A stretch of DNA of 64,000 nucleotides from a bacterium (GCA_021372575.1 JAJFUE010000059.1:16359-80358); one strand, 5' to 3'. Counted from the first letter of the stretch, positions 6,910-63,137 are shown. Made by a program: numbers and translations. The notes: a model not told the origin generated them from the sequence alone.

Positions 6910-7041
6910 GGTTTTCGCCTCAATCGAGTGTTTCGGGCGCAAGACTCTGTCCACACTTAATAAAATCAATCTTACGGTCTGCCTGAAACCCTCGGCATAC
7001 CTGTTGACGGGAATGCCGAGGGACTCATGGAATATCCGCGA

Positions 7042-8793: not shown

Positions 8794-8839
8794 ATCACTT
8801 TCTCCTTGTTCTATGAATCTGCTTGAAGTGTTCCCTTAT

Positions 8840-11560: not shown

Positions 11561-12250
11561 TTATACTGCTTTGCATTTCTCCCGGTATTGACAGTAAGAC
11601 CTGAAAAAAACCTCCGCTTATTTTTCGCTACTTCCTATATGCTCATGAAGCGTCTTACATGCTTCATATTTATTAGTCAAGATGAATTAATCGGGTTGTA
11701 AATAATACAGGATTCGGTGATGTCCACACAATGTGCGTTGAACGTACACATCCAGAACTGATGGCCATAGCAAAACGAAAAGCAAAGAGATGTTTATGCT
11801 TTAATGTGAACAGGTCAAGTTGGCAAAAAAAGAGGGACGCCGCCGGACCGCTCCCGCGGAGCTGCCGCCCCGACAGCACGGCACTGACGGCGCCCCCACT
11901 CGAGGGCGCTCTATGCTTGAGCGTTGTCAGCAATGATCTTTTTATTGGTCAGTGGCAGTTTGAGGAGAAAACGTCAATTTCATGAGCGCCGAACGGGATA
12001 TCGACTATGTTTGCAGCAACCCGAATTAAAAAAATCGAAACACATTTTCAGGCTGCTACCAGCCCAAATTGGACCTCGCACCTATGTGGTTTCAACTATT
12101 TGCTTTCGTTGCAATCCGATAGGATTAATCGTACTGACAAAGTATGATTTGCTCTTATTTCAATATGCGTGTTGATAGATGCTACCAGAAAATCGCTGTG
12201 CAAAAAGCAGTCATACTGCGATCATTAGTAATGACATCATCGAACCCATA

Positions 12251-12838
12251 TCATATCCGTTCAACAACACAATCCAGCCGTGAGTATGCGCGGCGGAACC
12301 AACCGGCGAGATATTTTTGACTTTGGGGCCGGCCCGTTACGATTGCTCGGTAAATGCGGGCTTGTTCGGCGGAGAGGAGGCAGAGGATGGCTGGCTGACC
12401 GAGTTGGTTGAGTCGTTCGCGAGTTTTGGGGCCGAATGAACCATCGACTTTGAGAAGCGGAGCATTTTTGAGACCGACGATGAACATGAAATCATTCAGC
12501 ATGCGCTGGACGATGTTGGCGGCGCCGGCTCGGCCGAGGTTTACGGCAGTGTCGAAGATCTTGATCGCGATCGCTTGGTTTTCGATTTCGTCGAGACCCA
12601 GTCGTTCCCAGTAGAGTTCTTTGTAAGCCCGCTTCTTGTCTTCCGTGCTCATTTTGCGGATATCGTCGGCGTCGATGTCGTAATCGCCGTCGATGTCGCC
12701 GCCGCCGGCGAGTCCAAGCTCAGTGAGATCGTCAACTGTGATGCCGTCGTTGGTAATGCCGCCCGGATCGTCGGGATCGTCATCGAGGCCGACCTCGAAC
12801 TGGTATGTGTAGTCGAATGCTTCGTCGAAACGCGTCAT
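12251..12838 (-). CDS. Endolysin: GH108-type N-terminal domain plus PG_binding_3 peptidoglycan-binding domain
   Basis: N-terminal QFEVGLDDDPDDPGGITNDGIT matches GH108 (E..DDPxDxGGxTxxGIT). C-terminal ..AVNLGRAGAANIVQRML..VDGSFGPKTRERLNQL..YRAIV..YLAGWFRRA typical PG_binding_3. Good RBS. Confidence 0.65.
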   Translation of the reverse strand: MTRFDEAFDYTYQFEVGLDDDPDDPGGITNDGITVDDLTELGLAGGGDIDGDYDIDADDIRKMSTEDKKRAYKELYWERLGLDEIENQAIAIKIFDTAVNLGRAGAANIVQRMLNDFMFIVGLKNAPLLKVDGSFGPKTRERLNQLGQPAILCLLSAEQARIYRAIVTGRPQSQKYLAGWFRRAYSRLDCVVERI

Positions 12839-28598: not shown

Positions 28599-28985
28599 TT
28601 ACCCCCGAGACCGGCAGACATACATCACGACTTCACCATCGATCCGCATTTCATCCGTGGCGAACACAGTCAGCGACCGCCCGTTCGCAACGATCAAATC
28701 GCCGAATGCCGGGACGCACTTGTCCTTCTCGTTTTTGATCCGGATCTCGACGTCGAGCGATCGAAGGTATCCGCCCGACTGGGCAATCTCGCGCGCGGAA
28801 TAGGGACGCACGATCGCATCGCGTGTCTCCTCTGTTGTGACCGTATCGACCTTGCCGGTCTCGGTGTTGTATTGGGCATCGGATTTGTGCGTTAGCGTGA
28901 TTTGCTCGGCAATCTGAAGGCCGGGAATGAGCTTGTTTTCAAACACTCGGTCAACGATGGCTCTGATTTCAGCGCCCAGCGTCAT
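28599..28985 (-). CDS. Head-tail joining / head closure protein, probable
   Basis: Synteny and size (128 aa). Confidence 0.4.
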   Translation of the reverse strand: MTLGAEIRAIVDRVFENKLIPGLQIAEQITLTHKSDAQYNTETGKVDTVTTEETRDAIVRPYSAREIAQSGGYLRSLDVEIRIKNEKDKCVPAFGDLIVANGRSLTVFATDEMRIDGEVVMYVCRSRG

Positions 28986-30070
28986 GAGAGCCCTGCTTTG
29001 AGCTGCGCGAGCGTAAGCACCTGGTTATTGCTCGCAAGGTCTTGAAATGTGATCTTCCCGGCCTTGTAAAGGTCATATCGGGCGGCCCCGAGGTAGCGCC
29101 TTTTCCACCCCTCGGGCTGGCGATCAAAGAAGTTCCTAAACGTTTTCTGGGCGCTTATTTGGCCTGCTTTCTTAATCTCCCATTTGGTCGATGTGGTCCC
29201 ATCCGGGACGCGTTTTCCGTTTTCCACTTTCGTGTGATGGACGGTCCGACCTTCCTGTTCGAAAACAGCCGCGCGCGTGGCATCGCTATCATCTTCAAAT
29301 TCTGTAACCGGAACGACTTGGCACCGGCAGCGCGGATGAATCGGGAAGCTGGGCAGATCAACGCGATTTTTTGATGTGAGGCCATCGTAATTGGCGCAGG
29401 CCGAACAAGTCCGCGCGTCCAGGGTGGCCACAACCCTATAACCGCTGATCAGATCCTTGTGCTTATCCAGCACGGCGTCATGTGCGAGCGCGGAGGCTTG
29501 GGCCACAGCCGTCCGAGCAAGTAGGTCAGCCCCGTTTCGGGACAGACCCAGTGTGTCGCGCAAGCGGCGTGCGGCTTCGGCATTCGTCTCGCCAAGAATG
29601 AGCGACTGCGTAAGTTCCCGCCGCAGCCGGCCCTTGATCCCGGAGAGGTGGGAGTCGATCCAGTCATTGAGGAACGCCCCGCCCATCGGCTCCGTGAGCA
29701 TGGCCTTGGTCTGGGCGACGGGGAGTTTATACGCCGCCTCGCTCACATCCTTGCCTGCTTCGCCCCGAATAAGCCGCGTGAATTGGTCGTATTCCGTCCT
29801 GATGATTTCGAGCCGAGCTTCATCGATCACGCCGGCGTATTTCTCGCCCAAAGCCTTGAGAACGCCCGCAATCTCGCCCTGCATTCGCTGGTAGCGCGTG
29901 AGGGCGAATGTGGTCCCCCGCTGGGCAACAAGTCGTTTCGAAAGCTCGTTCATTGCCCTCGTGAGCGCAGGGATCAGATCCTCGCGCGCCACTGCCGCGC
30001 CGTAAGATTCAACATCCAGAGCACGGCGCAGGATTTGATCGTGAATGGTCTCTGAATTCGCGATGCTCAC
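28982..30070 (-). CDS. Phage head morphogenesis protein, Mu F / SPP1 gp7 family
   Basis: Motif DARTCSACANYDG...PIHPRCRCQVVPV (Mu-F-like D.RTC..C...G....HPNCRC signature). Confidence 0.6.
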   Translation of the reverse strand: MSIANSETIHDQILRRALDVESYGAAVAREDLIPALTRAMNELSKRLVAQRGTTFALTRYQRMQGEIAGVLKALGEKYAGVIDEARLEIIRTEYDQFTRLIRGEAGKDVSEAAYKLPVAQTKAMLTEPMGGAFLNDWIDSHLSGIKGRLRRELTQSLILGETNAEAARRLRDTLGLSRNGADLLARTAVAQASALAHDAVLDKHKDLISGYRVVATLDARTCSACANYDGLTSKNRVDLPSFPIHPRCRCQVVPVTEFEDDSDATRAAVFEQEGRTVHHTKVENGKRVPDGTTSTKWEIKKAGQISAQKTFRNFFDRQPEGWKRRYLGAARYDLYKAGKITFQDLASNNQVLTLAQLKAGLS

Positions 30071-30585
30071 CGGACCACCTCGAACGTGCTGTCAATTTGA
30101 ACACCGGCATCGAATAACCAAGGACGAAGCAGGGCGATGACGGTCTCGATGCTTCCACCGGCACATGCTTCCCGGACAGCGCGATCGGGAGCGTTGCTGT
30201 ATTCAACGCTTGCCGTCTGGTTTACGTCCACAGATGCGATTTCGCGGCTGCCGCTTGTCCGGCCGGTGCTGGCATCCTGGTCAGCGAAGTGATGAAGAAG
30301 CATTTCAAGCTGGGCGTTTCTGACCCTTGGAGAGATCAGCGAAATGTCATCTTGGTTTCGCGGGAACTCCATCGACTGCCCGTCAATTGCTTTGTCGCCG
30401 GTGAAAGTCATGCGGTCGATCGCCTGAGCAGCGCGCACCAGCCGGGCTGATTTCTCGGCCTCTGTCATCGCTGACCAAATCGGGAAGAACGGCACATTGG
30501 CTTCGAAATAGGCGTCTGCCTCGGCTATGCTCGCGTAGCTGTTGGCGTTTGCTCCGCTTACGGTGGTGTCAATCGTGATGGCCAT
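30067..30585 (-). CDS. Head-tail connector protein (gp6-like / DnaT-like fold), probable
   Basis: N-terminal ..SYASIAEADAYFEAN..W..MTEAEKSARLVRAAQAID typical of gp6-like connectors; synteny. Confidence 0.4.
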   Translation of the reverse strand: MAITIDTTVSGANANSYASIAEADAYFEANVPFFPIWSAMTEAEKSARLVRAAQAIDRMTFTGDKAIDGQSMEFPRNQDDISLISPRVRNAQLEMLLHHFADQDASTGRTSGSREIASVDVNQTASVEYSNAPDRAVREACAGGSIETVIALLRPWLFDAGVQIDSTFEVVR

Positions 30586-33888: not shown

Positions 33889-35355
33889 CTAAGTCATTTG
33901 GTCCTGTGGTATCGGTTCAGGTTGGGCGTGGCCCGTGTCCATTGCACCGAGACTGCGCCGATCCACGTCCTGCGCGATCTTCACCTTGGCTTCTTCGATG
34001 TCGTAATCCGCCGGCAGGATGTCGCCGTCAATCAGGAGTTGGAGCACGTCATCGACCGGCAGCATTTCGGCAACGGCCAGGTCCTTGAACGCATTGATCA
34101 TCGCGGCCTCGATGATCCGGTCGTCGAAATCGCGGCTGTAGGCAATCTTAATCGCGCCGGCATCGGCGCCGCGTCCCCAGCGCGCCATGATCTCCCAGCA
34201 CCGCCGCTCCGACGCTTCCAGCGAAATCGAGGCTGATTTGAGCGAGGACGTGAAAATCCGGCGGTCCTCACGTTGTGAGTCGGCTGACTGGACCTGGGCC
34301 GAATCCTTCTGCGCTTGAGCAAGGGCAATGGAGTAAATCCGGAAACGCAAGTCTTTGATCGACTCGCGCAAGGACGCAAAGCCTTGGCCAGTGGTCTCCA
34401 AGTAACCGACAGCCGTTGAATAACCGGGCTCGGATTTGAGGTGAAACCCCTTGGCGGCGTCGAGGCGGGTCGGCTTGTCTTTGCCAATCGTGTAAGGAAT
34501 CGGGTGGGCCGATAGCCGTTCGAACCAGTCGAGATCGGATTCTTTGTTGTAAATCTGGAGGATGTGCCCCAGAACGCTTTGAGCAACTGGCCAGCCCGAA
34601 TGGTCGGTTCGCTTGACGCCAAAGAACGGCACAAGCGGCACTTCGCCGAACGGGTTTACGCCTTGCTCAACGAGCTCATAAGATTCGCGTTCGCTATTGC
34701 TGTCCTCGGCTTCCGTCGCCTCGTAAACAAGCCACTGCGACCGGGTCCACACTTTCCATTGTTCGCGAATTCCGGGCTCACTGCCCCAGCCCTGATCACC
34801 CCGGCCGGTGGCATTTGATTCGGTGATAACGGCCCACAGCAGTTTTCGATCCGCGCCCACTTCCCAGTCGATGACAGCGTCAGCCGGTATGCGCTGAAAG
34901 AACGGCCGAAGTCCTGCGTTTTTCTCGTCGAGCGCGCTTTTGAGAAGCGACTTGCCCTGTTCATCCGTGGGCACACGCGGTGCATCGACCAGAACCCAGT
35001 GGATCCCGTCCACCTGGGCCTCACGGGCTGCATCGTGAAAGAACACATCGGCCGGCGTGCCGAGCATGTCGACGTCGGCCTGCCACGAGTCAAGTTGCGC
35101 CGGAAGCTCGCGTAAATGCGGTTTTGCAAAAAGCATCGCCTGTCGGGCCGTGACGATCTTCTCAACCCAGGGATCCAGGACGGCGCGTTTTAAGCGAAGT
35201 TCGTAATCGTCGTCCGACTCGTTCTTCTCGCGGTAGAGATAAACGTCGCGCTTGGCCTTGACCGCCCCTTGGCCATCAAACAGATCACGGGATTTTTGCC
35301 GAACGTGAGCGGTATCGACAAAATCGGGGTGTTGGATTGTAAGATTAATCGACAT
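33889..35355 (-). CDS. Portal protein, probable (488 aa)
   Basis: Size and position immediately downstream of the large terminase; 1-nt overlap with terL stop. Confidence 0.55.
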   Translation of the reverse strand: MSINLTIQHPDFVDTAHVRQKSRDLFDGQGAVKAKRDVYLYREKNESDDDYELRLKRAVLDPWVEKIVTARQAMLFAKPHLRELPAQLDSWQADVDMLGTPADVFFHDAAREAQVDGIHWVLVDAPRVPTDEQGKSLLKSALDEKNAGLRPFFQRIPADAVIDWEVGADRKLLWAVITESNATGRGDQGWGSEPGIREQWKVWTRSQWLVYEATEAEDSNSERESYELVEQGVNPFGEVPLVPFFGVKRTDHSGWPVAQSVLGHILQIYNKESDLDWFERLSAHPIPYTIGKDKPTRLDAAKGFHLKSEPGYSTAVGYLETTGQGFASLRESIKDLRFRIYSIALAQAQKDSAQVQSADSQREDRRIFTSSLKSASISLEASERRCWEIMARWGRGADAGAIKIAYSRDFDDRIIEAAMINAFKDLAVAEMLPVDDVLQLLIDGDILPADYDIEEAKVKIAQDVDRRSLGAMDTGHAQPEPIPQDQMT

Positions 35356-36944
35356 CAGAAAATCCCGACCCCCGCGAACGTGTCTTCCTCAATGGCAACG
35401 CCGCCCGTCTGATCCACAGTCATTGCGCCGGCGAGGGCATCAGGCGCGTCGTCGTGATCGTTGAACGGCCACTCTTCAAGTTGTTCGGTGAGCCGCCGCC
35501 AGTGCTCGCCCTGGTAGTCATCGCGAATGCGGTCCTCCAGATCGGCGGGAAAACGCAGCCATCCCTGAATGAGCGGTGGTCCGATCCGCTCGATGCGAGC
35601 ATCCTTGGGCTCAGACGGATGACGCACATCCCAGGGAAGCTGCCAATATGGGCTGCCCTCTTTACGAAGCTGCTCCTGCCGCGCCTCGAACACCTTCCGA
35701 ATCCACAGTTCCTCTTTCGGGAGCATCTCGACTTCAAGCCGATGGATTCCGTGGAACCCGAGGCGAACCCATTTTTCGTGCAAGGTGAAGCAAGCGGCGA
35801 TCTGGTCCTCCGGCGGACGCCGATCCACCCAGCAATCGATGAGATCGTGCGTTCCATCCGGCCTGCGCAGAACCAGAATCAAAGCGCCGTAATCGCCCTT
35901 AGCCGCGTTCCGGCCACCTGTGGGATCGAGAAATGCCAGAATCTTGCCCGAAGGCGTGAGGTCGTTCCAGTTCCAGCGCGCCCACTTGTCGCGCCCAGGG
36001 AATCGAACATCCTCGGGACTGATGGCCTTGCCTTCAAACAGTCGTTTCCATGCCGATCCCGGTTCGTCCCGTTTCTTGATCAGTCGTTCTTTCGGCCACT
36101 GATCCCACAGCGGAAGGAAACCTTCGGTCGGCTCGTTCCAACCCTCGGGCGGATGCGAGATGCGGAAATACATCCGGTCCACGTTCTCGTAACCGAGCCA
36201 TAGCGTAGCGAACGAGGGCGATTCGGCCATCTTGTGAACAGCGTCTTCGCGGTGCCAGCAGTTGTTCGTCACGAGCAGAATGCCATTATCAGTAAGGCGG
36301 TTCGCGAACGTATCGAAAATGGCGCTGGCGACATGCCGACGCTCGGCTTCGCTGTAGAGGCAGTTGCGCGTGACACAGTCATCCAGCCAGATCGTGTCGA
36401 GGCGGTGACCTTCGGCTTGGCCGAATAGGGAATAGCACTCGAATGCCGGCGCGGACTGGCCGACGAGGTAGAGTTTTTGTTTACTCCACTCGCCCTGGTC
36501 GGCAGCGCTGCGGTTATAATCCGGAACGATTTGAGGAAACACGCTCGCGCACGTGGCGGACGTAAGCGCCTTCCGCACTCGCATGAGGTGTTCCTCGGCA
36601 AGGTCCTTGTCCCGCGACACGATGCCGATCTTGCGCGTGAGGTCATGCGCCAGAATCCAGATGAGGGACGGAATGATCTGGCTCGTTTTCGCGTGCTCGG
36701 GCGGGGCCTGAATGAGGACGTTTTTGTGTGCGCGAAAACAAGTAAACAGGAAATGCTGCATGAGCTTATGAAACGCATGCGGACGCACCTTGCGAAACGA
36801 GGCCGCTGTGATCAGATCAGCAAAAAGGCGGGGGTTCGCCCTTGCGGCAACCATCAACGCGTCGAGCTTGATTTGATCTTGAGTGAGATTACTCGCCGTG
36901 ATCGTCGGCATCGGCGCCCCCTCCTTTCTGCTGAAGTTCTTCAT
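35355..36944 (-). CDS. Terminase large subunit
   Basis: N-terminal ATPase (..VLIQAPPEHAKTS.. Walker A-like, ..TIWLDDCV.. Walker B-like) and C-terminal nuclease acidic residues; size 529 aa. Confidence 0.65.
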   Translation of the reverse strand: MKNFSRKEGAPMPTITASNLTQDQIKLDALMVAARANPRLFADLITAASFRKVRPHAFHKLMQHFLFTCFRAHKNVLIQAPPEHAKTSQIIPSLIWILAHDLTRKIGIVSRDKDLAEEHLMRVRKALTSATCASVFPQIVPDYNRSAADQGEWSKQKLYLVGQSAPAFECYSLFGQAEGHRLDTIWLDDCVTRNCLYSEAERRHVASAIFDTFANRLTDNGILLVTNNCWHREDAVHKMAESPSFATLWLGYENVDRMYFRISHPPEGWNEPTEGFLPLWDQWPKERLIKKRDEPGSAWKRLFEGKAISPEDVRFPGRDKWARWNWNDLTPSGKILAFLDPTGGRNAAKGDYGALILVLRRPDGTHDLIDCWVDRRPPEDQIAACFTLHEKWVRLGFHGIHRLEVEMLPKEELWIRKVFEARQEQLRKEGSPYWQLPWDVRHPSEPKDARIERIGPPLIQGWLRFPADLEDRIRDDYQGEHWRRLTEQLEEWPFNDHDDAPDALAGAMTVDQTGGVAIEEDTFAGVGIF

Positions 36945-37375: not shown

Positions 37376-38116
37376 TCAGTGCTTCCAGGGAATATGCAGG
37401 GAGCGCTGGTTCTTGTGGATCGCTCCCTCGCGGGCAGAAATTGCATCGCCGAAGTACTCGCGCAGGACCCGGTTTGTGCGGGATTCGCTGTCGGCGTCGC
37501 GGTAAAGCCCCTGCCCGCCGGGATTGTTCATCGTTTCGTGTTGGACGAAGGCATAACGGGTGTCGATGAATGCCTTCCGGTGGAAATGGGCATTCAAGCC
37601 GGAGATGAAGAAGTCTCCACACGCCATGAGGCGTGTGGGGTAGTAGAGCTTTGAGCCGGCCAGAAGGCCGTAGCTCATGCCGTTGATGTAACCGCCCAGC
37701 GAGAACGGTTTCATCGGGTTGTAATACATGCAGACGGCGATATTGGAGAATCCGAAGAAATAAGCGCCGATGTCCTCGCACAGTTGCGCGGCCGTCTCGA
37801 TCGCGTCCTGGGTTTCATCTGGTGAGAGCCGCGGATACGTCGGCTCGCCGGGCTCGAACGAAATCTTTACAAACGCGTCCACGTCATCATCACAGTGGAA
37901 CAGATTGCCGAAATGTTCATACATCCACTGGAGCTTGGGCGGAAGACCTTTGACGCTGTCAGGGTGAACAACGATTTCCACGTTGGGGTAGTAGTCTTTA
38001 TAAACCGCTTCCTGGGACTCGGCCACACACAGGACCGGATGGACGAACAACCGGTGGGAAGAAACCCGGCCGGCGCGCCCATGCGTGGGAATGACGGTGT
38101 GGATCCGATCAGTCAT
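37376..38116 (-). CDS. Hypothetical protein with DxD motif (putative GT-A-like nucleotide-sugar transferase), start MTDRIHTVIPTHGRAG
   Basis: ..NLFHCDDDVDAFV.. DxD-like motif; ATGA overlap with ParB-like nuclease gene; fold assignment tentative. Confidence 0.35.
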   Translation of the reverse strand: MTDRIHTVIPTHGRAGRVSSHRLFVHPVLCVAESQEAVYKDYYPNVEIVVHPDSVKGLPPKLQWMYEHFGNLFHCDDDVDAFVKISFEPGEPTYPRLSPDETQDAIETAAQLCEDIGAYFFGFSNIAVCMYYNPMKPFSLGGYINGMSYGLLAGSKLYYPTRLMACGDFFISGLNAHFHRKAFIDTRYAFVQHETMNNPGGQGLYRDADSESRTNRVLREYFGDAISAREGAIHKNQRSLHIPWKH

Positions 38117-38796
38117 TCGAGCCCCAGTGCGGATTTGAATACTTGAAATGAAATCGCCCGTCCCTCGCCAACGGTCTTGGATTTGTTCGTGCGGCATTTC
38201 GTGATAGCGAGGATGGATTTGAGCCGCGTCCAGTCGAGGTCGTTTTCCGTGAAGATCACGACGTAGTTGTAGGACTCGTTGAGGCGCGCCACGAGCGGGT
38301 AGATAGGATTCTCTTTTTCGGATTCATCCTGCGGCTTATCAGAAGGGGTCTCGTCGGCTTCGCGTTCAAGATCACAAAACAGGCGGTTCAGGCCCACGTC
38401 ATCGACCATGAGTGGATCTTCGTCTTCGAGGCGGCTCAAAATTCCTGCGAGCCCATCGGTAAACTCCCCCGCGATGTGCGGGTTGTTGGCTTCGACCATC
38501 GCAGCATCGGCAACTGTTTCATCCCAGTCCACCACGCGAACCGGCCACGATTCGCCGGTTTCGGGATCGGTGATATGCGGCTCGGGTTCAAGTTCGAGCG
38601 TGGCGCCCTTCTCCATCAGCACATTCACCCGTTGGTGTCCGGCTACAAGAAAGCCGGTCCGCCGGTTCCACACGATCCCGGCGATGTTGCCGAAACGCCG
38701 CATGGACGCCGAAAGCCCACGGCGGCTTTCGCCGTCAATCGAGCGCGGGTTTTCGGGATGGGCCGCAAGGTCCTGGATGCTTGAGAGTTCGTGCAT
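38113..38796 (-). CDS. ParB-like nuclease domain (ParB/Srx N-terminal fold) protein
   Basis: ..LAAHPENPRSID.. and ..LVAGHQRVNVL.. motifs of the ParBc family; typical position upstream of small terminase. Confidence 0.6.
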   Translation of the reverse strand: MHELSSIQDLAAHPENPRSIDGESRRGLSASMRRFGNIAGIVWNRRTGFLVAGHQRVNVLMEKGATLELEPEPHITDPETGESWPVRVVDWDETVADAAMVEANNPHIAGEFTDGLAGILSRLEDEDPLMVDDVGLNRLFCDLEREADETPSDKPQDESEKENPIYPLVARLNESYNYVVIFTENDLDWTRLKSILAITKCRTNKSKTVGEGRAISFQVFKSALGLE

Positions 38797-39123: not shown

Positions 39124-39432
39124 ATGGACGAAAGCACCAGCAGCGCCAGCGCCGGCCAGGTCAAGCCTGGCAGCGAAACCACCGAGTACCGGCAGGCTCG
39201 GCAGGCAAACACCTGGGGGATTGTGGGCCTCATCCTGGGCGGCATCATCGCCGTCGGGCCGGGCCTCGTCGATAAATTCTGGGGTGCAAACCAGAATTCG
39301 GTCGCATACATCGCGGCCGGCGGCGCGCTCAGCGTCGTGAGCGTCATCTACAAAATGCTCGTCGATCTCGGCTACATCAAATCGCGCACCGACGTCAAGG
39401 TGGCCCAGCAATTGGGCAGTGAGCAAAAATGA
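39124..39432 (+). CDS. Holin-like protein, class II topology (2 TM)
   Basis: Two hydrophobic helices (TWGIVGLILGGIIAVGPGLV; SVAYIAAGGALSVVSVIYKML) and charged C-terminus; GGAAGG RBS. Confidence 0.45.
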   Translation: MDESTSSASAGQVKPGSETTEYRQARQANTWGIVGLILGGIIAVGPGLVDKFWGANQNSVAYIAAGGALSVVSVIYKMLVDLGYIKSRTDVKVAQQLGSEQK

Positions 39433-39620
39433 CACTTAAAAGCGGCTTGATCCAATTCGCCGTCGCTCTGATCATTGAATTGTTAGATTGGGTGGTTGTG
39501 AATGATGTGTTTGAGGATAGGTCGGAGGATTCGAAAGGACATGCTGCGCTTCGTGCTCGCCTTGTTGCTCGTGTCCGTGGCCTCAGCTTGCAAAACGACC
39601 CGGACAATTTACGTTCCTGA
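39429..39620 (+). CDS. i-spanin (Rz)-like small protein with N-terminal TM
   Basis: ATGA overlap with holin-like gene; N-terminal TM LIQFAVALIIELLDWVVV; short (63 aa). Confidence 0.35.
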   Translation: MTLKSGLIQFAVALIIELLDWVVVNDVFEDRSEDSKGHAALRARLVARVRGLSLQNDPDNLRS

Positions 39621-39765
39621 TGGCGAGCCCGTGAGGCTCCGGGAATCGGTGCATGGCGCCAAGGTCTGGGTTCCTGATCAAGCAGGCGCATGGACGGCTG
39701 GCGTCATGGACTTGCCCGAGGGCTGGTATGCACTGCCAGACCCGCAGCCCGAACAAGCCAACTGA
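39541..39765 (+). CDS. o-spanin (Rz1)-like lipoprotein encoded in +1 frame overlapping the Rz-like gene
   Basis: MLRFVLALLLVSVASAC: signal peptide with lipobox A-S-A-C; Pro-rich C-terminus (..LPDPQPEQAN); starts inside 39429-39620 and extends beyond it. Confidence 0.45.
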   Translation: MLRFVLALLLVSVASACKTTRTIYVPDGEPVRLRESVHGAKVWVPDQAGAWTAGVMDLPEGWYALPDPQPEQAN

Positions 39766-40104
39766 CGCCATTCACGCGCTCAATTATTTCCCCCGTCGCC
39801 AGACCGATCTCGCGGCCGGGCGGGGGAATATTTATGTCAAAGAAGGGGGTTGTTTTTCATGTCCGGCTCGAGCTGTCAACGACATGAACCAGAGTTGTTC
39901 TTTACGATCACGCTGGATGAGAAGATAAGGCCTCGCTTGGCGACCTACGGCTTTATGGTCGAAGGCAGGCCTCAGCAAATGTGCCCGTTCAAAGATGTCC
40001 AAGGTCTCTCGCCCGCTCAGATATGCGCTCTTTCTCCGCCGCAGTTCCGCAAGTTGCCTGAACATCTTAATTAAACTGACTACAGTTCATAGCTGATCCC
40101 GACT

Positions 40105-40135
40105 GGGCGGTCCTTTGGGCCGCCCTTTACTTTTG
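40105..40135 (+). terminator. Rho-independent terminator after lysis-like cassette
   Basis: GGGCGGTCC-TTT-GGGCCGCCC stem-loop (9 bp stem, one G.U) followed by TTTACTTTT. Confidence 0.5.
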
Positions 40136-40527
40136 CCCTACCACGACCTTAGCCAAGGGCTCGTCGATCTGAACATTATCCCTTCCGACGTTGACAGTAA
40201 CCGTTGTCGGGATCAGAATTTAAGCGTCGGAGGCGGAGAAGCAGCGCTTCTGGAAGCAATGATCGAAGGACGGATTTTGACTGGCGGTTTGCACCCCAGA
40301 AATGCTGCCCAAAACCCCGGCCCGCTTCGCCTGATGTTCCGCGGTTATTCTAATGGGAAGCCGGCCTATTGGGTAGTCTGTCCTGAAATTTGCGAAACTG
40401 CCAAAACTGACTGTTCCCAAAACTAGATGGGTTCGCACCGGTCAAGGGAAATCTTTCGCAACGCGTGACGTTTGTGGGATAGTACGAGGAGCGGCTTGGC
40501 AAGTCACTTCCTGCGGAGGAGTAAATT

Positions 40528-41853
40528 TTGCGCGACGAAACCGACGAGACCAAGGCGGTTTACTCCAAAATCGTCGAGAACCTAAAAAAGCTCGCGCGCC
40601 TCGAGCCGGTTATGCATGGCTCGAGCGACTTTAAGCTGCGCCCGATCGCCTCCGAAGACGAAGTGCGTGCATTCGAGACGAAATACACGGTCAAGCTGCC
40701 CACCGAATACCGCAACTTCATTACACGTTGCGGGCGAGGCGGGGCCGGACCCGGTTATGGTTTGCTTGATTTCAAAGATCTCGAAATCGGATCGCTCGAA
40801 AAGCCGCCTAATTCCGAATGGTATCTTAAAGAAGCCTGGATTGGGGATCTCTCGAAACCTTTCCCATATGTGGAACCATGGAACATGGATGTGCCATATG
40901 AGGTGCTTGCGCAGAAAGACTCAGAGGAAAGCGACCGTGTGGTGGATCAATTTGGGGAGAAGTACTGGGCTCCGCTCGATGGCGCTTTTCCGGTCGCCCT
41001 CATCGGCTGCGGCTATTACTATTGGCTCGTAACGACCGGCCCCGAAGCCGGCCATATTTGGGTCGATAACCGCGCGGCAGATGGCGGGTTGCGTCCGCTC
41101 ATGCTACCCGGTCTGGAGCGCGTGACGTTCCTGTCGTGGTATCAAAACTGGATAGACAAGGCGTTTGCGGCGGCGGAGGAACAGGGCTTGCACGAGGAAA
41201 CCGAAGAGGCCAGGGCGATGTATGCACAGATCATAGCCGATGTGGAAACGCTCAAGCGCGCGAAGCCCAAAGTGTTCGGCGCGGATTCGCACGAATTCAA
41301 GCTCCATCCGCCCGTGCCCGAGTATGAAATCGCCGGTTTCGTACAGGATCATCACATCGAACTGCCCCAGGAATACCGCAATTTTCTGATGCGCTGCGGT
41401 CGCGGCGGCGCCGGGCCTTACTATGGACTTTTCGACTTTCACATGATGGACAACGGCTTCGGCCATGTGAAATGGAATGAAGGCGGCGACTTCGTCGGCA
41501 CACTTTCAAGACCCTTCCCGTTCACCGAGCCATGGAACGATCTCAGTAAGCATCCGGCCGACGAACTTTTGGAGCGTGATTGCGACGAGTATGACCGCCA
41601 GATGCAGGTGTTCGATCAATGTTATTGGGCGCCGATCGACGGGGCCATCCCGATCTGCCATCTAGGTTGCGCCCTGCGGCATTGGCTCGTGGTTACAGGG
41701 CCCGAAGCCGGCCACGTCTGGGCTGATCATCGCGCCGAAGAAGGCGGTCTGTTTCCCGTCACTAATAGCGGTGAGCGCGTGACGTTTCTCGGTTGGTACC
41801 GCGCCTGGCTCGACAAAGCCCTTGAGATCATGAAAAAAGAACAGGCTGAATAG
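40528..41853 (+). CDS. Tandem SMI1/KNR4 (SUKH superfamily) domain protein, 441 aa, internal duplication
   Basis: Two copies of the ..LP(T/Q)EYRNF(I/L)(T/M)RCGRGGAGP(G/Y)YGL(L/F)DF...YWAP(L/I)DGA(F/I)P.. block (residues about 50-200 and 270-430). Confidence 0.55.
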   Translation: MRDETDETKAVYSKIVENLKKLARLEPVMHGSSDFKLRPIASEDEVRAFETKYTVKLPTEYRNFITRCGRGGAGPGYGLLDFKDLEIGSLEKPPNSEWYLKEAWIGDLSKPFPYVEPWNMDVPYEVLAQKDSEESDRVVDQFGEKYWAPLDGAFPVALIGCGYYYWLVTTGPEAGHIWVDNRAADGGLRPLMLPGLERVTFLSWYQNWIDKAFAAAEEQGLHEETEEARAMYAQIIADVETLKRAKPKVFGADSHEFKLHPPVPEYEIAGFVQDHHIELPQEYRNFLMRCGRGGAGPYYGLFDFHMMDNGFGHVKWNEGGDFVGTLSRPFPFTEPWNDLSKHPADELLERDCDEYDRQMQVFDQCYWAPIDGAIPICHLGCALRHWLVVTGPEAGHVWADHRAEEGGLFPVTNSGERVTFLGWYRAWLDKALEIMKKEQAE

Positions 41854-42302
41854 GCCACCGCCCCGCCGCGCCGCGCGCGCCGGCCGATCTCGCTCGGGCG
41901 CAAGGTTGTTTGCCATCATCGTGATGGCATTCGCGCTGATTATTCTAGAATTTATCGAGTTCGCCCTGCGTGCGGCACTGGCTTACAAAACGCGGGCAAT
42001 CTGCATAACATCACAACAGCCGTGAACACTGGATTTCGGATTTCGGGAACAGTCAACAAAATAGGCATGTGCGGCGTCTATCAAAACCTGCATGATAATT
42101 GAGCTAATACCGTATCTCTATCCCTGATTAAACGGGGTCAACAGGCTGGGTGGCCGCCCCTTAAATATTTTCCTTCCGATCGCGTTCCTCAACACCAGTC
42201 TGGAGCCGGTTTTTATACAACGCGCTGCCGTGTCAAGCAACCGCACCCCGTATAATTCCGGTATCCGCGCGAGGTTGTTTCCCGTTCCCAAAAAGTAAAA
42301 AT

Positions 42303-42613
42303 CGTCAGTGATCCGTCACTGATCAATCACTGACGCGTCACTGACGAATCACTGATCGATCACGGATTGATCACTGACGCGTCAGTGACGCATCACTGAT
42401 TCGTCACTGATTGATCACTGATTTCTATAAACATTCTTATACGATCCAATTACCATTCAGGATACGAGCGGAGGCTTAACTCTTATAAACACAATGACCC
42501 GCATCGAATCACTGATGAATCACTGATTGATCACTGACGCGTCACTGATTCGTCACTGATCGATCACTGACGCGTCACTGACGAATCACTGATCGATCAC
42601 TGATCAATCACTG
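42303..42613. repeat. Iteron-like array: about 22 copies of an 11-bp unit (TCACTGA + 4-nt spacer) in two blocks flanking an AT-rich core (42422-42506); includes perfect 18-bp palindrome TCACTGACGCGTCAGTGA
   Basis: Direct reading: spacers drawn from cgcg, cgaa, tcga, ttga, tcaa, ttcg. Block 1 42303-42421 (11 units), block 2 42507-42613 (10-11 units). About 37-bp segment duplicated between blocks. Stops in all frames. Confidence 0.85.
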
Positions 42614-42645
42614 CAGGAACAGGGAACAGGGAAGGGAACAGGGAA
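42613..42645. repeat. Heptamer microsatellite (CAGGGAA/CAGGAA)n abutting iteron array
   Basis: caggaacagggaacagggaagggaacagggaa. Confidence 0.7.
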
Positions 42646-43026
42646 TATATTGTACATCCTAAAGGATGTTAGTCGTCACCGCCGCTTTCGCGGCTCCGGC
42701 GGCTGCGCCGCCCCCCTTCCTTTCATCCATTTCACCCGAGAAAATATTTTCTACGAATCCAAGAATATACAGACGCGGTAGAGTAGTACACCCTCCCCAG
42801 GGAAACCGATCGAAGCTCACGCAGAGTTTTTCGCGATTATTTCGCGTGAGCTAAAAATCTAAAATTATTCCTGCTTGTGAGCGGGCGGTTAAAAACCCAA
42901 CCAAACTCAAAGTTTTCCGCCGTAAAAAAAATTTCAAAATAGGGATTTACAAAAGCCCCCTGTCTGAAAGAAGCTACTCGCCATCATACGGTGGGCGTAT
43001 AGTCCACCACCCAAGGAGAGGACACG

Positions 43027-43797: not shown

Positions 43798-44436
43798 GTG
43801 AACCCACCGGAGAAGAACCCGAGAAAGAGGCGAAAATTCACGATGGAAGAACGCAGAACAAGACGCGGTTACGATTTCGGCGAAGTGGCGAGCGCTTTTC
43901 AAAAATCCGTGCGTCGGGGACTGCTCGACGACGCCCTCTACTGGGGCGTGGAGCTTTACCTGTCCGGCTTTCACGAATACGCCTGGAAACGAATGCGCGT
44001 GATGTGCTCGGAGGATATCGGACCGGCCGAGCCGAGCCTCCCCGCCCAGATCGCCGGGCTCTACGCGATGTTTCGGCAGTTCCTGGAATCCAAGCCGAAA
44101 CGGACCGGCGCGATGGGCTCGGAGAAACTCTTTTTCGTCCACGCGATCATGCTTCTCGTCCGCGCCCGCAAATGCCGGATCGTCGATCACGCGAATATTT
44201 ATCATTTCCGCGCTCATGACCAGATTCAGCGCCGCGAGATTCCCGATTGGGCTTTGGACAAGCACACCTATCGCGGCAAGCGCATGGGCCGCGGCATCGA
44301 TCACTTTTTCGAGACCGGAACGCTGCTCGAGAATCGTAGCGCCGAAATCGAGGACGTGTATCGCGACCGCGCAATGGAGTGGGCCGATATCGAAATGCCC
44401 ACGCAAGATGCCACAGGGCAGCTTGAGATGTTTTAA
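43798..44436 (+). CDS. Hypothetical protein (212 aa)
   Basis: ORF track, operon context; no motif recognised. Confidence 0.45.
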   Translation: MNPPEKNPRKRRKFTMEERRTRRGYDFGEVASAFQKSVRRGLLDDALYWGVELYLSGFHEYAWKRMRVMCSEDIGPAEPSLPAQIAGLYAMFRQFLESKPKRTGAMGSEKLFFVHAIMLLVRARKCRIVDHANIYHFRAHDQIQRREIPDWALDKHTYRGKRMGRGIDHFFETGTLLENRSAEIEDVYRDRAMEWADIEMPTQDATGQLEMF

Positions 44437-50757: not shown

Positions 50758-51672
50758 ATGCGTATCCGCACGATCAAGCCCGAGTTCTGGACGTCGCTGG
50801 ACATGGCCAAGGTCAGCGAGCCGGCTCTTATCCTCGCGGTCGGCCTCCTGAACTACGCCGATGACAAGGGCTACTTCGTCGCCGATGCACGCCTGATCCA
50901 TGGGGCGCTTACACCGCTGCGTGAGCTTTCGCGGCCGATCATGGAATGCTTGGGGGAACTTCGGGAGGCGGGCTTCATAAACCTCTGCACGGGCACGAAT
51001 GGCCGCCCGTATGGGCATGTCGTAAATTTCCTCAAGCATCAAACCATCAATCGGCCCAAGGCGAGCAGGATTGCGCCGTTTTGGTCCGACACGCCCCTGG
51101 ACTGTGGAGATAGTCGGCAGGTCACGGATATACCGATTCCCGTGTGTTCCTCGGCTGTTCAAGTAAATGAAACGGTTCCGGCCGATACCGAAATCGCTTC
51201 TGTCACTGAACCGACACCGGATGAACCCGCTATACCCAGTGAACCGGAGCTTGCCAGTTCATTGGCGTCTGCCGCTGAAGTCACACTGTTCAGCGATGAG
51301 CCTGAACCCGAACCGGAAGCACCGAGAGAGCCTGAGCAACCGAAAAGCCACTGGATCATGGAGCTTTGGAACGCTCACGCGCCGACCGCCTTGCCGCGTT
51401 GCACAACCTGGTCCAAAAAACGCCAGACGGCAGCGAGGGCTCGGCTCAAGGAGTATCCAGATCGCGGCCATTGGCAACAGGCCATCGAGTCCATCGCGGA
51501 TTGCCCGTTCCTGATGGGTCAGAACGACCGGGGCTGGAGCGCCAGTATTGACTGGCTCCTGCTTCGGCCCGACTCGATCACGAAAATTATGGAAGGACAC
51601 TATCGATGCCGCGGGCGGCCGCCCGCGCTCGTCGGATCATCCATCGCCGGCGAGGGAGATCTGAGTTTCTAA
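50758..51672 (+). CDS. Replication initiator / replisome organiser-like protein, probable
   Basis: Position immediately upstream of DnaC-like loader; N-terminal ..IKPEFWTSLDMAKVSEPALILAVGLLNYADDKGYF.. winged-helix-like; acidic Pro-rich linker. Confidence 0.35.
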   Translation: MRIRTIKPEFWTSLDMAKVSEPALILAVGLLNYADDKGYFVADARLIHGALTPLRELSRPIMECLGELREAGFINLCTGTNGRPYGHVVNFLKHQTINRPKASRIAPFWSDTPLDCGDSRQVTDIPIPVCSSAVQVNETVPADTEIASVTEPTPDEPAIPSEPELASSLASAAEVTLFSDEPEPEPEAPREPEQPKSHWIMELWNAHAPTALPRCTTWSKKRQTAARARLKEYPDRGHWQQAIESIADCPFLMGQNDRGWSASIDWLLLRPDSITKIMEGHYRCRGRPPALVGSSIAGEGDLSF

Positions 51673-56437: not shown

Positions 56438-57712
56438 ATGTCGGCTGAAAAAGAAACGACCACGCTCGTAGAAAAAATTGGAATTGTAACAATTCGTTCC
56501 GGTGTAAGCCCCCAGAAATCGAAGGGTTTCTGGGTCCTTGAATATCGTTGCCCAGCGGCTTACCCCGGTGATCCCAATCGAGGCCGTCGGATTCGGCGGC
56601 GGATCGATCATGAGGCGATGTCTCTGGCCGATGTACGAAAGACGGCTGATCATCTCACAGCACAAGCATACCAGGGTAAAGGGTATCTACCTGAGCGAGA
56701 TGAAAAAGGGAAAGGGACTACTATCCAGGATGGAATTATTGAAGCACTCAGGCTGACGAACACTTTACCCGAAGTCCGCAAAGAACGTGCGCGCCTCGCG
56801 CTTCGGTTTGTTGAATGGCTTGCCGTGAATTACCCGCAAGTTCAGACTTGGGATCAAATGAGGCCGGCGGTGCTTCAAGACTACGTGCTGCATTTGGAAT
56901 CAAATAAACTCGCGTTCGACACAGTGAGATTGGCGATCGCCCCTATAAAATTGGCGTGGAGGCACATGGCGGACAATTTTCCGGATACTGTTCGGCCCCT
57001 ACCGCGCATTCGTCAGAAACCGGCCCCGAAGAGAGAGATCGACTGTCTCGATGCCGATGACGTTGCCGCGTTGCTGGAATGGCTTAAAAAACATGCGCCC
57101 GATATCTGGCCTCTCGCGATGCTGCAAACTCTGGCCGGTTTACGAATGCTGGAGACGGCTGCTTTGCGCCGCCAGGACGTAAACCTGAAGCAAGGGACAA
57201 TCAGGATCACGAATACGCCGAATCACTCTGTCAAAACAGCCACGAGTGATCGGCTGATACCTATCTGTAAAGAGGTTCGCAGTTGTTTGAAATCGGAGCT
57301 TGCGAATCAGAAGGTGTTTCCGAAGACCGGTGAGATATTCACAAATACAAAGGGCAATCCATGGACAAAGAATGCCTTGGGTTGGAAGTGGAATCGCCTT
57401 CGGAGTAAGCTGGATAAAAAATCGGGAAAGCCGATGATTGTGCTTCAAACGGGGCGCGCCGCATTGGCCGATTTCCAACCGCATCGTCTCCGCGCTTCGT
57501 TCGCGACGATGGCCGGCCGATTGGGAGTTGCAGATAGACTGCTTCAGGCGTATATGGGACATGCGCCGGTCGATGTTCTTGGAGCGCACTATCGCAAGAT
57601 CGGACTCGAGGATTTGAAAGCGGTGTCACAGAAGATGGATAAATGGGGCAACTTAAAGGCTGTTGGTCAAAAACGGGCAAAAAAAGCTCGGCCGGCTTCA
57701 CGAAAACACTGA
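56438..57712 (+). CDS. int: Tyrosine integrase (phage integrase family)
   Basis: C-terminal catalytic region ..HRLRASFATMAGRLGV..LLQAYMGHAPVDVLGAHY (R..H..R..Y); adjacent to tRNA fragment. Confidence 0.8.
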   Translation: MSAEKETTTLVEKIGIVTIRSGVSPQKSKGFWVLEYRCPAAYPGDPNRGRRIRRRIDHEAMSLADVRKTADHLTAQAYQGKGYLPERDEKGKGTTIQDGIIEALRLTNTLPEVRKERARLALRFVEWLAVNYPQVQTWDQMRPAVLQDYVLHLESNKLAFDTVRLAIAPIKLAWRHMADNFPDTVRPLPRIRQKPAPKREIDCLDADDVAALLEWLKKHAPDIWPLAMLQTLAGLRMLETAALRRQDVNLKQGTIRITNTPNHSVKTATSDRLIPICKEVRSCLKSELANQKVFPKTGEIFTNTKGNPWTKNALGWKWNRLRSKLDKKSGKPMIVLQTGRAALADFQPHRLRASFATMAGRLGVADRLLQAYMGHAPVDVLGAHYRKIGLEDLKAVSQKMDKWGNLKAVGQKRAKKARPASRKH

Positions 57713-57740: not shown

Positions 57741-57790
57741 ACCGCTTCCCAAGCTGGATGTCGCGAGTTCGAATCTCGTTTCCCGCTCCA
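57741..57790 (+). other. tRNA 3' fragment (anticodon-loop-like TTCCCAA, T-arm GCGAG-TTCGAAT-CTCGT, acceptor TTCCCGC, discriminator T, CCA); probable prophage att site
   Basis: Canonical T-loop and encoded CCA at 57788-57790. No complementary 5' acceptor strand (GCGGGAA) or D-arm in the preceding 40 nt, so not a complete tRNA. Followed by T8 run. Confidence 0.55.
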
Positions 57791-59807: not shown

Positions 59808-60281
59808 TTACTTCTCGGACGCCAGTCGCGAGTCCGGTTCAAAATTCATGGGGGCTTCGATGGATATTTTGGGGAAATCCGGATGTGCCGGATTGATCAG
59901 GTAGTTGACCTCACCAGGCGTCACGGCACTCGGAACTTCAAGAACCGCCGATGAACAATCGGCGATCCATTTCCCGCCAATTTCCTGTGTTTCCGCCATC
60001 GTTTCCGGAGCATTCCATCCCTTGGGCAGGGATGCCGGGGAAACCGATTTCACAAGGCTTTCGTCAAAGTTCACCGCGATCACGGAAAAGTTATCATGAA
60101 TGGTAGAGATGTCCTCCACGTGAACAAGCAATTCCAGTGTAGCCAGGGATAGCGAGCTCGAGGCATAGACCATGCCCGTGCCGACGAAATTCCAGCGCCC
60201 CCCGTTTATCCTTGCGCCTTCGCCATCGAACGCCGTTGCAAGATGTTTCTTGTGAGTGATGCGGTATGCACGGATCGTCAA
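59808..60281 (-). CDS. RES-domain toxin
   Basis: ..GGRWNFVGTGMVYASSSLSLATLELLVH.. (R..E..S arrangement of the RES family). Confidence 0.6.
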   Translation of the reverse strand: MTIRAYRITHKKHLATAFDGEGARINGGRWNFVGTGMVYASSSLSLATLELLVHVEDISTIHDNFSVIAVNFDESLVKSVSPASLPKGWNAPETMAETQEIGGKWIADCSSAVLEVPSAVTPGEVNYLINPAHPDFPKISIEAPMNFEPDSRLASEK

Positions 60282-60835
60282 CTGAACACCCCGTGTTCAA
60301 TCCTTCCCAAAAGGTGTTCCACCGCTTCCGCGCCCGGATTCGTGTCGCAAAACTCAAGCGGCGTTTTCCCTCCCAGGGCCCGCTTGGGAGATGAGAACCA
60401 TTTCCTTGCTTTCTCGCGCCCTCCAAGCACATCCAATGCCTTTTGGAAACACGAAGCCACCCGCAAGATGCGCTCGGACTCGTCCGGCTTGAACGTCTTT
60501 TTACGGGCAAGAGTCCGAACAGGAATGTTGATCGCGCGCCCGAGATCTTCCGTGGTCACGCCTATCATCGACTTAAGCCGGTCAAACGCATCCCTGGGAA
60601 ATCCTTGATGCAACGTGGATCGCACCCGATCAATGCTGGCGGGGTCAGAATAGATATAATAACCGGTCAAATTGCCGAGAATGGCCGAATACCAGAGAGG
60701 GCGACTGGAGGGTATGTCCACCATCCAATACTGTTTATTGCGGAAAGCAGACGAGCTTTTGCCGACTTGTTTGATGTCTTTCCAGTCAATCAGGATCGTG
60801 GGTTCTGTTTTCATGGTTGTCATAAGGCATATCAT
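60278..60835 (-). CDS. Xre/MbcA/ParS-type antitoxin (HTH + DUF2384-like C-terminal toxin-binding domain); N-terminal extent uncertain
   Basis: ..FDRLKSMIGVTTEDLGRAINIPVRTLAR.. HTH; C-terminal ..GGKTPLEFCDTNPGAEAVEHLLGRIEHGVFS; ATGA overlap with RES gene. Confidence 0.5.
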   Translation of the reverse strand: MICLMTTMKTEPTILIDWKDIKQVGKSSSAFRNKQYWMVDIPSSRPLWYSAILGNLTGYYIYSDPASIDRVRSTLHQGFPRDAFDRLKSMIGVTTEDLGRAINIPVRTLARKKTFKPDESERILRVASCFQKALDVLGGREKARKWFSSPKRALGGKTPLEFCDTNPGAEAVEHLLGRIEHGVFS

Positions 60836-62567: not shown

Positions 62568-63137
62568 ATGCCGACCATTGATCCCGGAAAAATGCGTGTG
62601 GGCAACAAAATCGTGCTCGACGACCAGTTGTGGGTCGTTACCGACTGGCAACTGCGCACCCCCGGCAACCTGCGCAGCTTCGTTGTCATCAAGATCAAGA
62701 ACCTCATCGACGGTCGCGCCATCGAGCGCACGTTCCGCGGCTCGGCCGAGCGCATCGAACTCGCCGAAGTCGAAAACCGCATGTGCGAATACCAGTATCA
62801 CGACGATATGGGCCATCATTTCATGGACCTGACGAGCTACGACCAGTTCGCCTTGCAGGACGACTTCCTGGGCCAGCAGGCCAACTTCCTGATCGCCGGG
62901 GCCGAGGTTCAGGTCGGCTACTGGAACGGCCGGCCGATCGGCCTCGAACTGCCGCTCAAGATGGTCTTCAAGATTATCGACACGGTCGATGACGTTGCGC
63001 GCGGCAACAGCTCGGGCAATATCACCAAGGACGCCCAGCTCGAGACCGGCATCACGATCCAGGTCCCGGCGTTCATCAAGAACGGCGACAGCGTGCTGGT
63101 CAACACCGAGACTGGGTTATACGTCGAGCGCGCGTAA
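62568..63137 (+). CDS. efp: Elongation factor P family protein
   Basis: Three-domain EF-P layout; ..LDDQLWVVTDWQ..PGNLRSFVVIKIKNL..; conserved C-terminal ..VPAFIKNGDSVLVNTETGLYVERA. Confidence 0.8.
   Translation: MPTIDPGKMRVGNKIVLDDQLWVVTDWQLRTPGNLRSFVVIKIKNLIDGRAIERTFRGSAERIELAEVENRMCEYQYHDDMGHHFMDLTSYDQFALQDDFLGQQANFLIAGAEVQVGYWNGRPIGLELPLKMVFKIIDTVDDVARGNSSGNITKDAQLETGITIQVPAFIKNGDSVLVNTETGLYVERA

Follow-up and report, generated by a model that had tools for sequence, protein, structure and literature searches.

A tandem SUKH-domain protein without a linked toxin in a temperate prophage

We have identified, in a stretch of bacterial DNA of 64,000 nucleotides (GCA_021372575.1 JAJFUE010000059.1:16359-80358; the whole of it is called the window below), a gene that encodes two full-length SUKH (SMI1/KNR4) domains in a single polypeptide of 441 aa. 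The gene sits inside an integrated tailed temperate prophage, between its core modules, and its identification on structural and genomic grounds is near certain. Its product is the sole member with two full copies of a large SUKH clade that is not linked to toxins, and it is carried by a phage of a candidate phylum. As to what the doubled protein does, we tentatively propose that it acts as a bivalent immunity protein that has no toxin of its own, and we weigh this proposal against other possible functions below.

Internal duplication and SUKH fold

An initial annotation of the gene had read its product as an internal duplication of a SUKH block, and our analysis bears this out. Residues 1-221 and 222-441 are 46% identical over 216 aligned positions (E 1e-70), a similarity far beyond chance. 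Each half carries the same motif, in the form LPTEYRNFITRCGRGGAGPGYGLLDF in half 1 and LPQEYRNFLMRCGRGGAGPYYGLFDF in half 2, and a second motif reads YWAPLDGAFP in the former and YWAPIDGAIP in the latter. Profile searches likewise support the family assignment: the Pfam family SMI1_KNR4 (PF09346) matches the protein over two stretches with 61.8 bits, well above its cut-off of 25.4 (E 1.3e-16), SUKH_6 matches the same protein with 37.3 bits, and a sequence profile of the clade described below retrieves YobK of B. subtilis (E 0.004). The protein thus matches the family hidden Markov model, has the SUKH fold and is SUKH in both halves, which is every mark of SUKH-1 membership that could be tested.

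The AF2 model of half 2 has a predicted local distance difference test (pLDDT) score of 97.3, and the top-ranked Foldseek matches carry weak E-values. As modelled, each domain is an elaborated SUKH domain of ~220 aa with a long helix at either end and an acidic insert of ~45 residues, as against ~150 aa in the SUKH-1 immunity proteins YobK (which acts on YobL; PDB 2PRV) and RhsPI (PDB 8BD1). The variable insert covers residues 80-125 in the first half and 302-345 in the second. In the model of the full-length protein (pLDDT 83.5, predicted template modelling score (pTM) 0.67) the secondary structure elements follow in like order in both halves. All homologs aligned to the C-terminal half, and the N-terminal half had no alignment depth and a lower pLDDT; given this lack of depth and the pTM of 0.67, we draw no conclusion about how the two domains pack.

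The reading frame opens with a TTG codon. Residues 1-82, the stretch that was scanned, contain no hydrophobic segment, and on this basis the protein is read as cytoplasmic and soluble. An identical protein is already on record as 'SMI1/KNR4 family protein [bacterium]', encoded on a contig of 115,519 bp, and it is also found in the Logan assembly of SRR15035648.

The GxGGAGPxYG clade and the origin of the phage copy

How common is the doubled arrangement? The hallmark of the clade to which both domains belong is an invariant GxGGAGPxYG loop; eight positions are invariant across phyla (seven Gly or Pro and one Phe) and ~27 are nearly so. When 1.84 billion representative proteins were searched exhaustively with HMMER, 5271 relatives emerged at E <= 1e-3 and 1126 at E <= 1e-30. 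The prophage protein tops this ranking with 488 bits, followed by a one-copy protein with 328 bits; it ranks first because it alone has two full-length copies, and no other representative protein in that collection combines two such copies. The relatives P0285 and P0108, which have two and three copies, rank lower and belong to a shorter sub-type. Relatives of ~433 aa from Variovorax were considered as tandems on account of their length and rejected, since an unrelated helical domain makes up the second half of each.

Scanning 185,579 genomes, one for each species, for the motif yielded at least 488 confirmed clade loci, whose products are 34-56% identical to the phage domain. They are spread over Planctomycetota, Acidobacteriota, Verrucomicrobiota, Bacteroidota, Actinomycetota and Proteobacteria. 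Wherever the open reading frame (ORF) could be delimited, the motif occurs once per protein (78 of 78 loci).

Are the relatives of the prophage protein encoded beside toxins? Among the 74 upstream and 71 downstream neighbours at these 78 loci, mostly genes for housekeeping enzymes, no Pfam family recurs in the 25 most frequent families of either list, and close relatives are not recurrently linked to toxins across the 145 neighbours. Similarly, all-against-all clustering of 2455 flanking ORFs (within 4 kb) found no conserved partner, with the exception of synteny in three Variovorax genomes. Individual contexts vary: one is a toxin-antitoxin island, another a set of small unannotated ORFs that follow a TIR-pentapeptide protein, a third an integrase-bearing element with ArdC-N-like and methyltransferase genes, and a fourth a site beside an Rtc RNA-repair operon. 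Fusion partners of the domain within the clade include a transmembrane GDSL esterase, HEAT repeats and a helical domain, and in the relative P0029 a hydrophobic stretch at the C terminus looks like a transmembrane helix.

Searches of 2.9 million viral contigs in IMG/VR with protein and profile patterns found no clade member. The curated phage collection INPHARED gave four clade matches, all of them in records entitled 'Listeria phage LM 4-x' (including OR848104.1) and labelled UNVERIFIED_ORG. We rejected these records as phage evidence, as their contents are chromosomal Listeria DNA with genes for a GH1 glycosidase, an internalin-like LRR protein, HAD hydrolases and an ABC permease; the stop codon of the GH1 gene is followed at once by the start of the Listeria SUKH gene. 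The prophage copy is the only viral occurrence of the clade that we found.

Where did the phage obtain this gene? The closest relative is P0002 (GCA_039683515.1, positions 8001-9938 of the locus examined), from a metagenome-assembled genome (MAG) of Candidatus Sumerlaeia that comes from the same sequencing study as the prophage-bearing sequence. It combines one SUKH domain (residues 1-210) with a transmembrane helix and a GDSL esterase, an architecture that is unusual for a SUKH domain, and its chromosomal gene lies near parAB among HicA, MazE and PIN toxin-antitoxin genes. P0002 is the nearest relative of both halves of the prophage protein and stems from the same lineage as the prophage host; unlike the phage copy, it is single, membrane-anchored, esterase-fused and located in a toxin-antitoxin island. 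Domain 2 is the canonical copy, being 54% identical to the SUKH domain of P0002 and 45-52% identical to those of other clade members. Domain 1 is 46% identical to domain 2 and 46% to P0002, and just 33-40% identical to other members. These identities are in keeping with a gene that came from the host lineage and was duplicated in tandem, its first copy then diverging faster, and the temperate phage probably did acquire it from that lineage.

Both copies keep 43 to 45 of the 47 positions that are conserved in at least 80% of the clade, and with nearly all of these residues retained both halves are probably functional. The gene has a G+C content (GC) of 0.566 and a GC at third codon positions (GC3) of 0.661, as compared with 0.58-0.61 and 0.68-0.71 in neighbouring phage genes, so that its composition does not set it apart from the rest of the phage as that of cargo would. 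Together, the conserved positions and the matching codon composition indicate a gene that is maintained and not decaying.

The prophage and the surroundings of the gene

The SUKH gene is internal to the phage and is therefore not a host gene that predates the insertion. To its left, the late operon (12.2-38.8 kb) runs on the minus strand up to 38796; to its right, the replication genes (43-56 kb) and the integrase lie on the plus strand (Table 1). The gene is not placed directly 3' of a co-oriented toxin gene, as a cognate immunity gene would be. In agreement with the initial annotation, which had noted no toxin gene nearby, searches against Pfam, PHROG and PADLOC detected no toxin domain in the ORFs of the two strands from 39.1 to 43.0 kb, nor elsewhere in the prophage. 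Two candidates for a hidden partner were also rejected: the MuF protein is short (362 aa) and lacks a toxin domain, and the large tail proteins, scanned as possible toxin carriers, gave no toxin domain either.

Table 1. Features of the SUKH locus, the prophage and its flanks (positions in the window).
Feature	Position	Strand	Basis or remark
Tandem SUKH (SMI1/KNR4) gene, 441 aa	40528..41853	+	ORF call, Pfam, half-versus-half alignment, database record
SUKH domain 1, residues 1-221	40528..41190	+	more divergent copy; 43/47 clade-conserved residues kept
SUKH domain 2, residues 222-441	41191..41853	+	C-terminal half
Shine-Dalgarno sequence GGAGGAG	40515..40521	+	6 nt 5' of the TTG start; read from the sequence
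Sigma-70-like promoter candidate, TTGACA-17 nt-CAGAAT	40191..40219	+	10/12 matches, consensus match only
Intrinsic-terminator-like hairpin, GGGCGGTCC-TTT-GGGCCGCCC, with T-rich tail	40105..40135 (hairpin 40105-40125)	+	
71 aa ORF	39859..40074	+	between membrane-protein ORFs and terminator
Small membrane-protein ORF cluster, three ORFs	39124..39765	+	topology; 5' of the SUKH gene
102 aa ORF, two hydrophobic segments	in the 39124-39765 cluster	+	topology
63 aa ORF, N-terminal transmembrane segment	39429-39620	+	topology
74-87 aa lipoprotein ORF, ASAC lipobox, out-of-frame overlap	39502/39541-39765	+	topology
8 bp hairpin, TGCCATCA-TCG-TGATGGCA	41909..41930	+	~55 nt after the stop, weak T tract
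Iteron array, 11 nt period, core TCACTGA	42272..42657	.	two blocks; bounds the replication/partition module
ParB-N-like protein	38113-38796	-	head of the late operon
TET-associated glycosyltransferase	37376-38197	-	PF20691, E 1.5e-9; phrog_842 'beta-glucosyl-HMC-alpha-glucosyltransferase'
TerS	left of the SUKH gene	-	late operon
TerL	35355-36944	-	position, size, 46-57% relatives on viral/metagenome contigs
Portal	33889-35355	-	late operon
Gp13-like capsid	late operon	-	
DnaT_2-like ssDNA-binding protein	30067-30585	-	embedded in the head-morphogenesis region
MuF	28982-30070	-	362 aa, short type
Tail tube, tape measure, GpJ-like tail protein	late operon	-	
Endolysin, GH108 + PG_binding_3	12251-12838	-	last gene of the late operon
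MgsA/RarA C-terminal-domain protein, stand-alone	43798-44436	+	3' of the iterons
ParB, 593 aa	44496-46277	+	
DUF932 protein	right of the SUKH gene	+	
O-like replication initiator	50758-51672	+	
RecT-like protein, exonuclease, RusA	right of the SUKH gene	+	
Tyrosine integrase	56438-57712	+	
tRNA-like 3' end: T-arm GCGAG-TTCGAAT-CTCGT, acceptor strand, CCA	57745-57790		~30 nt after the integrase stop
RES-domain toxin and Xre/MbcA/ParS-type antitoxin	59808-60835 (RES toxin 59808-60281)	-	just beyond the integrase end of the prophage
Host EF-P	62568-63137		right of the prophage

The promoter and terminator calls around the SUKH gene come from consensus scans only. The terminator-like hairpin upstream has a stem of 9 bp, of which 8 are GC pairs, and parts the small-ORF cluster from the SUKH gene. 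The promoter candidate lies ~310 nt 5' of the start codon, and in the leader of ~300-400 nt we found no Rfam match, no significant fold (z 0.57) and no notable operator-like repeat. Downstream, the hairpin that follows the stop codon is a possible but unconvincing candidate for the terminator of the gene. Farther on, the two iteron blocks (~42272-42442 and ~42476-42657) keep a strict period of 11 nt and are separated by an AT-rich spacer, with GGGAACAGG repeats at 42617-42645, after the iteron blocks. The ParB gene begins 1.8 kb downstream of the array and the gene for the O-like initiator lies 8 kb downstream of the array; the array could be an origin, or it could instead be a partition site or a centromere bound by ParB.

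The initial annotation had placed the gene in a classical moron slot, between a terminator that ends a holin/spanin cassette and a putative origin. The hairpin and the repeat array are indeed there. The layout of the three-ORF cluster resembles a holin gene with overlapped spanin genes, but the label 'lysis cassette' is unproven: it rests on membrane topology, with zero Pfam, PHROG or PADLOC family matches to these ORFs. Moreover, the only recognisable endolysin is encoded at the far end of the late operon, 27 kb from the holin/spanin-like ORFs, with no holin-like ORF found beside it, so that any lysis genes would be split, and a classical slot of this kind is not established.

Elsewhere in the late operon, the gene for the TET-associated glycosyltransferase overlaps that of the ParB-N-like protein and lies just before TerS and TerL. 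Its presence suggests that the phage hypermodifies its own DNA; the ORFs scanned in the window included no recognisable TET/JBP dioxygenase. TerL found no match in precomputed Pfam assignments. Its relatives in IMG/VR, GTDB genomes and JGI metagenomes amount to five contigs, each of <=5.7 kb and none reaching the SUKH locus, and none was found in the GTDB genomes.

At the integrase end, the tRNA-like 3' end is probably a fragment of the phage attachment site (att). It is single-copy in the window, where ARAGORN predicts no tRNA and the fragment has no Rfam match, and a comparison of the two prophage ends gave no direct repeat that could be an att pair. Just beyond this end, the RES/Xre pair has a GC of 0.53, below that of the neighbouring host genes. 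The host EF-P is 85% identical to the EF-P of a Candidatus Sumerlaeia MAG, and by this sequence likeness the host appears to be a Sumerlaeia-like bacterium.

Positions 1-12250 have a GC of ~0.50, lower than that of the prophage (0.58-0.60) and of the host genes at the right-hand end (0.60-0.64). They may belong to the host, to another island or to the element itself. Their first 7 kb contain almost no ORF of >130 aa, no tandem repeats and no match to phage DNA. Two long ORFs follow, neither with a Pfam or NCBIfam match: one of 583 aa (7042-8793), and one of 906 aa (8840-11560) that has an apparent N-terminal signal-like hydrophobic segment and a repeated helical, TPR-like sequence.

Possible functions of the doubled protein

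What could a tandem SUKH protein without a toxin do for its carrier? The roles put forward in the initial annotation, namely protection of the host from incoming toxins, anti-defence and superinfection exclusion, are candidates only. Proteins with several SUKH copies already form an established class, for which polyvalent immunity is predicted (PMC3113570, PMC3482391; Zhang et al. 2011/2012), and SMI1/KNR4 genes have been listed among variable prophage cargo, for example in phiLM21-like prophages of Sinorhizobium (PMC12429752). The novelty claimed for the gene by the initial annotation was therefore overstated. The Sinorhizobium cases, unlike ours, are annotations only, with no tandem structure stated. 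Like the polyimmunity proteins (PMC3482391), the prophage protein combines more than one SUKH domain in a single chain that no toxin interrupts. It differs from them in that its gene is prophage-borne and not part of a chromosomal polyimmunity locus, and in that its domains are sister copies from a local duplication and not distant paralogs.

By analogy with this class, we propose that the gene encodes a bivalent orphan polyimmunity protein with a mechanism of the SUKH-immunity type, a reading that we favour but hold to be somewhat short of probable. According to this model, a SUKH gene of the host lineage would have been captured by the phage and then duplicated in tandem, the N-terminal copy diverging faster. 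The gene appears to be an independent accessory unit, with a terminator ahead of it and with a candidate promoter and a ribosome-binding site of its own, placed between the late operon with the small-ORF cluster on one side and the replication module on the other. Each domain would occlude the toxic domain of an effector (a nuclease or another enzyme) by tight 1:1 binding, a mechanism that is proven for SUKH immunity proteins such as YobK and RhsPI. Two diverged domains could thereby confer a toxin-less, bivalent polyimmunity that shields the lysogen from the effectors of competitors or of other mobile elements. Polyvalent neutralisation is a prediction only, for the class in its original description too (PMC3482391).

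The upstream terminator, the candidate promoter and the absence of the clade from the IMG/VR contigs searched are consistent with an accessory character of the gene. Likewise, the sporadic spread of the clade over phyla at ~50% identity and its variable contexts, including a toxin-antitoxin island, are what one would expect of a conflict gene. Several observations weigh against polyimmunity. First, no clade member examined adjoins a toxin; in contrast to YobK and RhsPI, the SUKH gene has no adjacent toxin gene here, nor do its relatives in the 78 clade genomes, and the inference from the SUKH fold to an immunity function, made in the initial annotation, is weakened for this clade. Second, sequence conservation in the clade far exceeds that of typical immunity proteins; such strong residue conservation is atypical of fast-evolving cognate immunity proteins, and a conserved ligand or partner would account for it at least as well as a toxin, if not better. 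Third, the fusions to esterase, HEAT-repeat and helical domains point to a general adaptor role. Fourth, the near-average composition of the gene gives no sign of recent acquisition. Finally, we found no related phage with the SUKH region in which the dispensability of the gene could be compared. Our search of the literature found no paper that ascribes a role to any bacterial SUKH protein encoded by a phage.

The conservation and the fusions bear on a different function, which we consider possible yet rather unlikely: clade members could be adaptors or regulators that bind a common cellular component other than a toxin, and the phage copy could modulate or mimic them as a single-chain dimer, for example in envelope or membrane physiology. 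There are precedents for such roles, in that Syd binds SecY, Smi1/Knr4 is a hub protein and the SUKH domain of FBXO3 recruits substrates. In addition to the many residues conserved across phyla, including the invariant GGAGPxYG loop, an adaptor would agree with the absence of toxin linkage or of any conserved neighbour in the 78 genomes. It would also agree with the frequent tight coupling to housekeeping genes, such as the adjoining GH1 glycosidase gene in Listeria, and with the membrane-tethered or enzyme-fused relatives P0002 and P0029. The long N- and C-terminal helices predicted for each domain could mediate a dimerisation that the tandem fusion would hard-wire. However, the clade is patchily distributed (at least 488 loci in 185,579 species genomes) and ~50% identical between phyla, which indicates a horizontally moved accessory gene and not a core function; several of its contexts are mobile or conflict-related, and the partner cannot be named.

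A phage anti-defence or host-takeover function is likewise doubtful, although parts of the setting suit it. The tandem SUKH protein would then be made in infection or induction and would block a host effector such as a defence nuclease, an NADase or a toxin of a toxin-antitoxin system. The gene is co-oriented with the early/replication module and lies just upstream of it, and proteins built on the SUKH fold are proven inhibitors of toxic enzymes. One clade member stands beside the ArdC-N anti-restriction-like gene and the methyltransferase gene of the integrase-bearing element mentioned above, and the phage's TET-associated glycosyltransferase suggests investment against host nucleases. Toxins of toxin-antitoxin systems are plentiful on the host chromosome and at the locus of the homolog, with RES/Xre beside the prophage and HicA, PIN and MazE around P0002. 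There is moreover a precedent among DNA viruses, as members of the herpesvirus US22 family (US22, TRS1/IRS1) also have two tandem SUKH domains (PMC3113570). The US22 proteins bind proteins of their hosts and antagonise host defences, but these hosts are eukaryotic, and the likeness is one of architectural analogy and not of membership. On the other side, typical anti-defence families have relatives in viruses, whereas for this clade none turned up among the 2.9 million viral contigs or in phage genomes that are genuine. Structure searches gave no similarity to a solved anti-defence protein, none appearing among the meaningful matches, and the sole PADLOC match, to PDC-M40A, is marginal (E 2e-4, 19 bits, ~50 residues). 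The strong terminator and a gap of 400 nt isolate the gene, which fits a moron at least as well.

A further proposal, in our judgement unlikely, is that the phage has taken a conserved SUKH binder that stands alone in cells and doubled it covalently, to serve as an inhibitor or a decoy. Its target would be an effector of host defence or of a toxin-antitoxin system, or else the partner that the clade has in cells. If true, this would make the protein the bacteriophage counterpart of the herpesvirus US22 tandem-SUKH antagonists, and it would provide the first functional handle on a widespread SUKH clade without a toxin partner (at least 488 species). By contrast, it is very improbable that the gene is a functionless passenger, a decaying host fragment left by imprecise recombination: the rarity of the clade in phages and the faster divergence of the N-terminal copy would suit such a fragment, but the 441-codon frame is intact and preceded by a strong Shine-Dalgarno sequence, both domains keep their clade-conserved residues, the structure model is confident and the composition has ameliorated to the phage average.

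These results do not overturn current understanding. If the protein neutralises toxins, the phage would be passing on, within a candidate phylum that lacks cultured genetics, a ready-made and bivalent protection from toxins that act between bacteria or inside the cell. Of more use, as a by-product, is the clade, which is highly conserved, horizontally scattered over six phyla and never toxin-linked in the genomes examined, and for which the duplicated phage copy offers a natural experiment for finding the partner.

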